Source: a virus
Taxonomy: Duplodnaviria > Heunggongvirae > Uroviricota > Caudoviricetes
Virus record (IMG/VR): IMGVR_UViG_2802429237_000002
Coordinates: 1-30,679 of that record
Length of the DNA stretch: 30,679 bases
Reading direction: 5' to 3' (one strand)
Both the position numbers and the translations under genes were made by a program. Of the stretch, positions 24,408 through 24,698 are shown piece after piece. Under the pieces are notes generated by a model, which saw only the letters and a list, made by a program, of their open reading frames with translations, searched no databases and had not been told where the DNA came from. Within the stretch, counting starts at the first letter, position 1. Each line of letters starts with the position of its first letter.

Positions 24408-24698
24408 ATGACACACATGATCTTTCGTCATGGCGACATGAAGAAGTGGAAAGGCGTTGGCTACGACTTTGAAATCGTGAAAGCCGAAGAGATTCAGGAA
24501 TATCTGGATGCTGGTTGGTTTGCACATCCCGATGACCTTCTTAAGGATGTTGCAGAGCCAGAGCCAGAGCCAGAGCCAGAGCCAGAGCCAGAGCCAGAGC
24601 CAGAGCCAGAGCCAGAGCCAGAGCCAGAAGAAAAACAGCGTAAAAAGCCTGGTCGAAAACCTAAGGCGGCAGCAGATGAACCTGACAACGAAGGGTGA
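24408..24698 (+). CDS. Hypothetical small protein with a central (Glu-Pro)x12 repeat and basic C-terminal tail
   Basis: ATG at 24408 preceded by GGAG (track ORF starts at an upstream GTG that overlaps the coat stop); [16 protein letters not shown]...DVA(EP)12[23 protein letters not shown]; 3' end overlaps the gp4 start. Confidence 0.55.
24555..24626 (+). repeat. Perfect tandem hexanucleotide repeat (GAGCCA)x12
   Basis: Counted directly: twelve uninterrupted GAGCCA units, in frame as Glu-Pro codons within the 24408..24698 ORF. Confidence 0.9.

Follow-up and report, generated by a model that had tools for sequence, protein, structure and literature searches.

The perfect GAGCCA microsatellite in the window, the whole 30,679-nt stretch of viral DNA analyzed here, lies inside a small late gene located between the coat protein gene and the gp4 gene. 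The (GAGCCA)n polymorphism is an ordinary in-frame tandem-repeat phenomenon in a conserved, uncharacterized phage gene. Comparison at the sequence level suggests that this locus is likely the E. coli-lineage counterpart of P22 orf69, a small late gene that sits between coat and gp4 throughout the P22-like phages, and that the repeat, as part of the same explanation, is likely a linker whose length changes by slippage. P22 is among the best-studied phages, and its head operon still contains this conserved and uncharacterized small gene.

General features of the small late gene

Twelve unbroken GAGCCA units, read directly from the sequence, occupy positions 24555–24626 on the plus strand and form a 72-nt perfect microsatellite encoding (Glu-Pro)12. 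Tandem Repeats Finder reported the array at 24553–24628 with a period of 6, 12.7 copies, 100% matches and a score of 152, and the next-best array in the rest of the 30.7 kb window scored 61. The array is in frame with a small ORF on the plus strand (24408–24698), which starts with ATG at 24408, ends with TGA at 24696–24698 and encodes 96 aa plus the stop, in agreement with the 97-codon ORF originally described. The same ATG is called by NCBI PGAP in E. coli genomes. A GTG-started ORF listed from 24360 is in the same frame as the small ORF.

The upstream neighbor is the coat protein gene (23068–24363, plus strand), a homologue of P22 gene 5 (PF11651, E = 7e-167), and its product shares 73% amino acid identity with the P22 coat protein. 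An intrinsic terminator-like hairpin, GGGAGC-UUCG-GCUCCC followed by a T tract, was identified at 24369–24396 of the plus strand by a pattern scan and RNA folding. Its stem, AGAGGGAGC-TTCG-GCTCCCTTT at 24369–24390, begins 6 nt past the coat stop codon and is followed by the T run. The predicted folding energy is -22.9 kcal/mol, with a z score of -5.5 against shuffled sequences. An equivalent stem-loop is annotated in P22 and Sf6 and was found in all relatives compared. A GGAG ribosome-binding site (24398–24401, plus strand) is located 6 nt 5' of the ATG of the small ORF, so that the ORF has, as had been noted, its own ribosome-binding site behind a strong terminator. When the segment 24355–24402 was folded, the terminator stem was prolonged, with CUGGAG, which contains the GGAG ribosome-binding site, pairing with the upstream CCAG/GAUAACC. 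The ribosome-binding site of the small ORF may be partly sequestered inside the terminator hairpin in this folding model.

The downstream neighbor is the gene encoding gp4, the head-tail adaptor (24676–25176, plus strand; PF11650, E = 1e-58; phrog_637). Its ATG is at 24676, in the +1 frame with respect to the small ORF, and the two genes share the final 23 nt of the small ORF. The window gp4 shares 60% amino acid identity with P22 gp4, and the alignment begins at residue 1. The gp10 gene was also identified by profile searches among the neighbors downstream of the coat gene. A Shine-Dalgarno-like octamer for gp4, TAAGGCGG (24662–24669, plus strand), is embedded in the K-P-K-A codons of the small ORF. 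The same octamer precedes gp4 in P22 and in a Pectobacterium prophage, and Sf6 has AAGGCGG without the leading T. A small ORF that overlaps or abuts the gp4 start is general among the relatives compared. The late region of the window shares 94–96% identity with the E. coli Lederbergvirus phages CurroJimenez (Bas106), HZ41, APC_JM3.2, IME10, Dewey and Louie.

Relationship with P22 orf69 and conservation of gene order

The window protein matches phrog_1175 over the full profile (E = 4e-32). It has 331 close homologues, every one of which is named hypothetical. In the P22 genome (BK000583), orf69, encoding 69 aa (DAA00988.1; annotated as unknown, putative; sequence MKIAIYKPGGSIMVWGVMAQMKVIDSSELPEYVKDGWLDHPSKLLPVEADDVKPRKGRKPKAVSDADKD), is located between gene 5 and gene 4, directly after the stem-loop. 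P22 orf69 shares 33% amino acid identity with the window family (BLASTP, E = 2e-11) and has the same layout. In both phages the order is coat gene, stem-loop, small ORF and gp4, and both products have an N-domain with G-W..H-P, an acidic linker, a GRKPKA motif and an acidic tail whose codons overlap the gp4 start. They differ in the linker, which is short and non-repetitive in P22 (PVEADDVKP), whereas in the window it is the 72-nt perfect microsatellite. The small gene appears to diverge faster than its neighbors, because orf69 shares 33% identity with its counterpart, compared with 73% for coat and 60% for gp4. The window protein thus belongs to the phrog_1175 family by sequence similarity, by its position between the coat gene with its stem-loop and gp4, and by the combination of an N-domain, an acidic linker and a basic G-R/P-K-P-K motif.

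The slot between the coat gene and gp4 is held by gene 6 in Sf6 and by hkbT in HK620. Sf6 gp6 is a doubtful homologue (hhalign probability 17%). A search of 1.84 billion representative proteins yielded 33 matches. Five relatives with approximately 35–60% identity could be located on contigs. Three of them are flanked by a P22-type coat gene on one side and a P22_Tail-4 (gp4) gene on the other; for the remaining two, the contigs are short and show only one of these neighbors, directly adjacent. A close form of the small gene is present in 219 of 5,426 complete E. coli genomes (~4%). We searched the literature for P22 orf69, GAGCCA tandem repeats, the WDGH domain, gpFI and AT-hook phage proteins, and found nothing on this small gene or locus.

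It had originally been suggested that P22 has no equivalent of this gene and that the gene might be an insertion into the head operon. That an ORF lies behind a terminator with a ribosome-binding site of its own, and that the N-terminal part of the gene has been swapped as a cassette between otherwise near-identical prophages (see below), would fit a recently inserted foreign gene (moron) absent from P22. The finding of the orf69 homologue in the same place in P22 refutes this reading. The occupation of the same slot by Sf6 gene 6 and HK620 hkbT, and synteny down to approximately 35% identity among the five located relatives, two of which show one neighbor each, also speak against it, and we give it practically no chance of being correct.

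Domain organization and predicted structure

An alignment of 23 diverse members reveals a common plan of the family, comprising an N-domain, an acidic Pro-rich linker, a basic motif and usually an acidic tail. In the window protein, the N-terminal folded domain (residues 1–49; 24408–24554, plus strand) consists of a beta-hairpin, a helix, an invariant G-W...P and a short helix. Across the family, this domain of approximately 45–48 aa follows the pattern M-x-Y-[KR]-x-G ... I/V-V ... E-L-x-x-Y/H-L-x-x-G-W-x-x-H-P, and G36, W37 and P41 are invariant in the alignment of 23 diverse members, among relatives at 32–50% identity. The AlphaFold2 model of the window protein, computed with the alignment of 23 members, assigns a pLDDT of ~90 to residues 1–45, with a beta-hairpin (2–14/17–25), a helix (26–34) and a short helix (41–49). 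The remainder, including the (Glu-Pro)12 linker encoded on the plus strand at 24555–24626, is predicted to be disordered (pLDDT ~56). An independent AlphaFold model of a longer WDGH variant again gave a confident N-domain. The structure prediction bears out the original description of a compact N-terminal domain and a Lys/Arg-rich tail.

Among 34 distinct alleles from 80 IMG/VR loci and the window, the variant codons within the first 49 codons comprise 23 synonymous and 4 nonsynonymous ones. The N-domain is therefore under purifying selection in the frame of the small ORF. This synonymous excess and the phrog_1175 match support the original view that the repeat lies within a real protein-coding gene, and the protein is presumably expressed. 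The orf69 family is widespread and under purifying selection. Its layout, with a folded domain, an acidic linker and a basic motif, is fixed, and the linker can be a fast-evolving microsatellite.

The linker is followed by a basic AT-hook-like motif (KKPGRKPKA; 24633–24668, plus strand), whose position is conserved across the family. The corresponding sequence is RKGRKPKA in P22, and KRGRPPKA, RRGRPPKN, KKPGRPKTK or KRGRRPK in distant members. Among 184 small-type homologues, the core of the motif is GR[KR]P in 132, G[PK]KP in 14 and RGRP/GRP in 5. The protein ends with the acidic C-terminal tail AADEPDNEG, encoded together with the stop codon at 24669–24698 of the plus strand, the last 23 nt of which overlap the gp4 start. 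This acidic tail is missing in some distant relatives. In one distant relative, on a metagenomic P22-like contig (L091, 4001–4249), the peptide VDTQPTEE occurs as a direct repeat on either side of KKPGRPKTK, and the gap between the coat gene and the small ORF is 220 nt, compared with the usual length of about 45 nt.

Conservation of the basic motif may in part reflect dual coding, because the gp4 Shine-Dalgarno sequence sits in its K-P-K-A codons. The whole ORF could even be viewed as a translated leader, in which ribosomes that finish 23 nt into gp4 would expose the ribosome-binding site of gp4 and link gp4 synthesis to translation of the small ORF, the peptide being of minor importance and the repeat neutral. 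The general overlap or abutment with the gp4 start, the Shine-Dalgarno sequence inside the ORF and the extreme tolerance of linker length all agree with such a role. However, the N-domain is strongly conserved at the protein level with a large synonymous excess, its fold is predicted with confidence and its invariant residues persist across relatives of 32–50% identity, and the basic motif is retained even in relatives whose small ORF does not overlap gp4. A role as leader only is decidedly unlikely.

Two other proteins, a GIY-YIG/NUMOD3 homing-endonuclease-like protein (P0138) and a protein of 196 aa (P0153), each contain four tandem 'ELQxYLDxGWxxG' modules. This module resembles the core of the orf69-family N-domain, with E values of about 1e-5 to 1e-3. 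As a weak lead, the N-domain core may be a small nucleic-acid-binding module of this kind.

Reading frame of the repeat and annotation of gp4

In the RefSeq and GenBank records of IME10 (NC_019501.1; L086, 1684–2289, corresponding to 24508–25176 of the window), gene 4 is extended through the repeat and the small ORF is omitted. The RefSeq gene is annotated from an upstream ATG and reads MLQSQSQSQ.... According to this annotation, the repeat would be part of an N-terminally extended gp4 in the Ser-Gln frame; fusion of the small ORF to gp4 by a frameshift would be a variant of the same idea. The gp4 frame of the window is indeed open for 195 nt upstream of the ATG at 24676. Openness of a frame across the repeat is uninformative, because GAGCCA is stop-free in all six frames. 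In P22 and two other relatives, the gp4 frame is closed 3 nt 5' of the start; the P22 gp4 alignment starts at residue 1 of the short form; PGAP gives a short gp4 together with the small ORF in each of the inspected E. coli genomes; and both conservation and synonymous excess fall in the Glu-Pro frame. We consider an extended or fused gp4 very improbable. Given the closed gp4 frame in P22 and relatives, the P22 gp4 alignment from residue 1 and the PGAP calls, gene 4 of IME10 has very likely been mis-annotated because the repeat contains no stop codons. The repeat is thus also a source of annotation errors, such as that of IME10 gene 4.

WDGH variants and cassette exchange

In some E. coli prophages, the match to the query is limited to its 3' portion and begins within the repeat; a 'WDGH domain-containing protein' is encoded at this place. 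These variant proteins are composed of the N-domain, a WDGH domain (PF25311, E = 2e-39), (EP)0–6, the same basic motif and an acidic tail. A single cluster of WDGH variants at 90% identity comprises 1,929 sequences, and relatives are distributed over the Enterobacterales. In E. coli 22AR0322 (L096, 2003–2598), the coat gene shares 97.8% identity with the window and the region from gp4 onward shares 94.8%; only 24426–24599 has given way to a sequence encoding a divergent N-domain and a WDGH domain. Judged by sequence comparison, a cassette has been exchanged here, with the start of the ORF and the Glu-Pro repeat as its boundaries. PGAP begins the WDGH gene of 22AR0322 at an internal Met, and the N-domain is missed.

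Other proteins (P0289, P0270, P0278 and P0298) carry fusions of the WDGH domain to PF21825 and to PF11195 (DUF2829). DUF2829 is, we assume, the fold of the anti-Thoeris protein Tad2. If so, the WDGH domain may belong to an anti-defence or nucleotide-binding context.

Copy-number variation of the GAGCCA repeat

The number of GAGCCA units varies widely among relatives. The best 80 IMG/VR loci contain 2 to 9 units, in a set that the query biased towards short arrays. In E. coli, 47 full-length matches were drawn evenly from 221 records, representing 219 of 5,426 complete genomes, and these contain 1 to 18 units (median, 5). Direct reading gave perfect arrays of 12, 13, 16, 18 and 24 units. Complete E. 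coli genomes together span 1–24 units, which is also the overall range among relatives, and the distribution has a mode of 2–6 and a long tail. The 12 units of the window belong to the upper tail and are not extreme, since at least 12 units occur in 5 of the 47 sampled alleles. The units that interrupt arrays (GAGCCG, GAGCCT, GAACCA and GATCCA) for the most part leave the Glu-Pro sequence unchanged or alter it conservatively.

We compared nine pairs of loci whose flanks of ~3 kb differ by 0–10 bases. Five of these pairs differ by 1–3 repeat units, and one of the five has identical flanks. Repeat number differs even between prophages with 0–3 base differences in these flanks, and copy number therefore changes much faster than bases are substituted. 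These whole-unit differences between otherwise near-identical genomes identify the array as an in-frame variable-number tandem repeat. They are the pattern predicted by slippage at a perfect repeat, which we infer to be the mechanism. All alleles read, from 1 to 24 units, are in frame, the unit being 6 nt in length. The original proposal of a length-variable module is thereby confirmed at the population level: copy number is variable rather than invariant across P22-like prophages and differs between near-identical phages. The (GAGCCA)n locus can be used as a typing marker for P22-like prophages.

The locus has a second, minor length polymorphism, in which the T tract of the coat terminator (24391–24396 in the window) is T5 or T6 between alleles. 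Locus lengths that differ by non-multiples of 3 had raised the suspicion of frameshifted alleles; these were rejected, and the T5/T6 variation of the terminator is the cause. A phase-variable on/off contingency locus was also considered and rejected: the unit has 6 nt, and the alleles read show no shift of the reading frame.

In the mechanism we propose, replication slippage at the perfect six-base microsatellite would add or remove whole units at a rate far above that of point mutation. The reading frame would always be kept, and the protein would tolerate the change, the segment serving only as a flexible spacer. The outcome would be a population of alleles with 1–24 units, with the 12 units of the window in its upper tail. 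Tolerance of linker length would be near-neutral.

Glu-Pro runs are not restricted to close relatives. The Pectobacterium prophage has a Glu-Pro run with another Pro codon (CCTGAG x4), and a relative at only ~41% identity has GAGCCA x5. Many relatives, P22 orf69 included, have only a short non-repetitive acidic linker. Because Glu-Pro runs recur before the basic motif, an acidic Pro-rich linker looks selected, with its length free.

With 1 unit, the net charge is -4 and the extended linker measures about 0.6 nm; with 24 units, the charge is -27 and the linker reaches about 15 nm. These two properties could set the activity of the protein, for example through an acidic tract that masks the basic motif or mimics DNA, or through an anti-defence role, so that repeat number would act as an adaptive 'tuning knob' under diversifying selection. 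The very wide range of unit numbers, the perfection of the long arrays, and the great shift of net charge and contour length with copy number are in favor of such tuning. So are the independent recurrence of Glu-Pro composition beside the basic motif in divergent lineages and in WDGH variants, and the fusion elsewhere of the WDGH domain with DUF2829, the presumed Tad2 fold. Against it, on/off switching is impossible with an in-frame unit, the allele distribution (mode 2–6, long tail) is that expected from mutation and drift in a tolerant linker, and the linkers of many relatives, including P22 orf69, are short and non-repetitive. We regard diversifying selection on repeat number as unlikely, and slippage within a tolerant linker remains our preferred explanation.

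Comparison with known proteins and putative function

Searches of Pfam and NCBIfam with the window protein, P22 orf69 and Sf6 gp6 assigned no family and gave only low-complexity matches to PARP and TonB_N. For the window protein, the scores were 27.6 bits for PF05887 (cut-off 100) and 16.2 bits for PF16031 (TonB_N; cut-off 33). Glu-Pro runs are also found in the TonB spacer and in the EP repeats of trypanosome procyclin, where, as here, they are expected to be extended and spacer-like. The originally noted resemblance to TonB is compositional only, since the TonB_N score is below its cut-off and the window protein, which is hydrophilic throughout, lacks a signal sequence, a membrane anchor and the C-terminal domain of TonB. 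In its variation, the repeat is similar to MLVA-type loci and to the collagen-like repeats in prophage tail fibers: the unit is perfect and a multiple of three, copy number varies between near-identical genomes, and the segment is non-globular. It differs from them in that it lies in a small cytoplasmic late-operon protein and not in a surface or fiber protein.

The basic motif resembles the AT-hook of the HMGA type as a short basic motif in a disordered region, and distant members have a G-R-P core in KRGRPPK, RRGRPPK and KKPGRPK. The window and P22 differ from the AT-hook in having G-R-K-P, and some relatives in having G-P-K-P, and the codons of the window motif also hold the Shine-Dalgarno sequence of gp4. 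DNA binding by this motif is putative.

Phage lambda gpFI offers another comparison. It is reportedly a small, acidic DNA-packaging accessory protein that is not a virion component. It stimulates the terminase-prohead interaction and binds the major capsid protein. Its gene lies right after the major capsid gene and a stem-loop and before the head-completion genes, and its folded part is joined to another functional part through a long flexible acidic or Pro-rich linker, both of which are likenesses to the orf69 family. The order of the parts is different. No sequence or fold homology to gpFI was detected, and the window protein was not assigned to the gpFI family.

The product of the small gene would have four parts, namely a folded N-domain, a disordered acidic Glu-Pro linker, an AT-hook-like motif and a short acidic tail. 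Translation of the ORF would cross the ribosome-binding site and start of gp4 and would probably aid gp4 expression. By analogy, the protein could be a dispensable, non-virion late accessory factor of head completion or DNA packaging, in which the N-domain would hold a partner and the basic motif would contact DNA; we put this forward as a tentative possibility. PDB sequence searches with profiles of both family alignments found no resembling chain, solved structure or characterized fold. The PDB presumably includes virion structures of P22 and Sf6, and the lack of a resembling chain is consistent with a protein that does not form an ordered part of the virion. To our knowledge, classical P22 genetics has placed no essential gene between genes 5 and 4, so that any role would be dispensable in the laboratory.

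A more speculative version, which we hold to be unlikely, is that the orf69 family is an overlooked head-maturation or packaging factor of P22-like phages analogous to gpFI. The AT-hook-like tail would hold DNA, the N-domain would dock on capsid, portal or terminase, and the hypermutable spacer would keep phage populations variable in reach and charge, which would be of consequence on some hosts. A second form of this idea, built on the exchangeable WDGH cassette, would make the slot an anti-defence or host-interaction locus. The natural alleles with 1–24 units, together with the WDGH-insertion alleles, constitute a variant set for probing the function of the protein.

Elsewhere in the window, short tandem repeats are clustered in the early region at 8395–8450 (period 14, 2.6 copies; period 7, 3.9 copies; period 8, 2 copies). 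This cluster may be an origin or operator-type repeat region.
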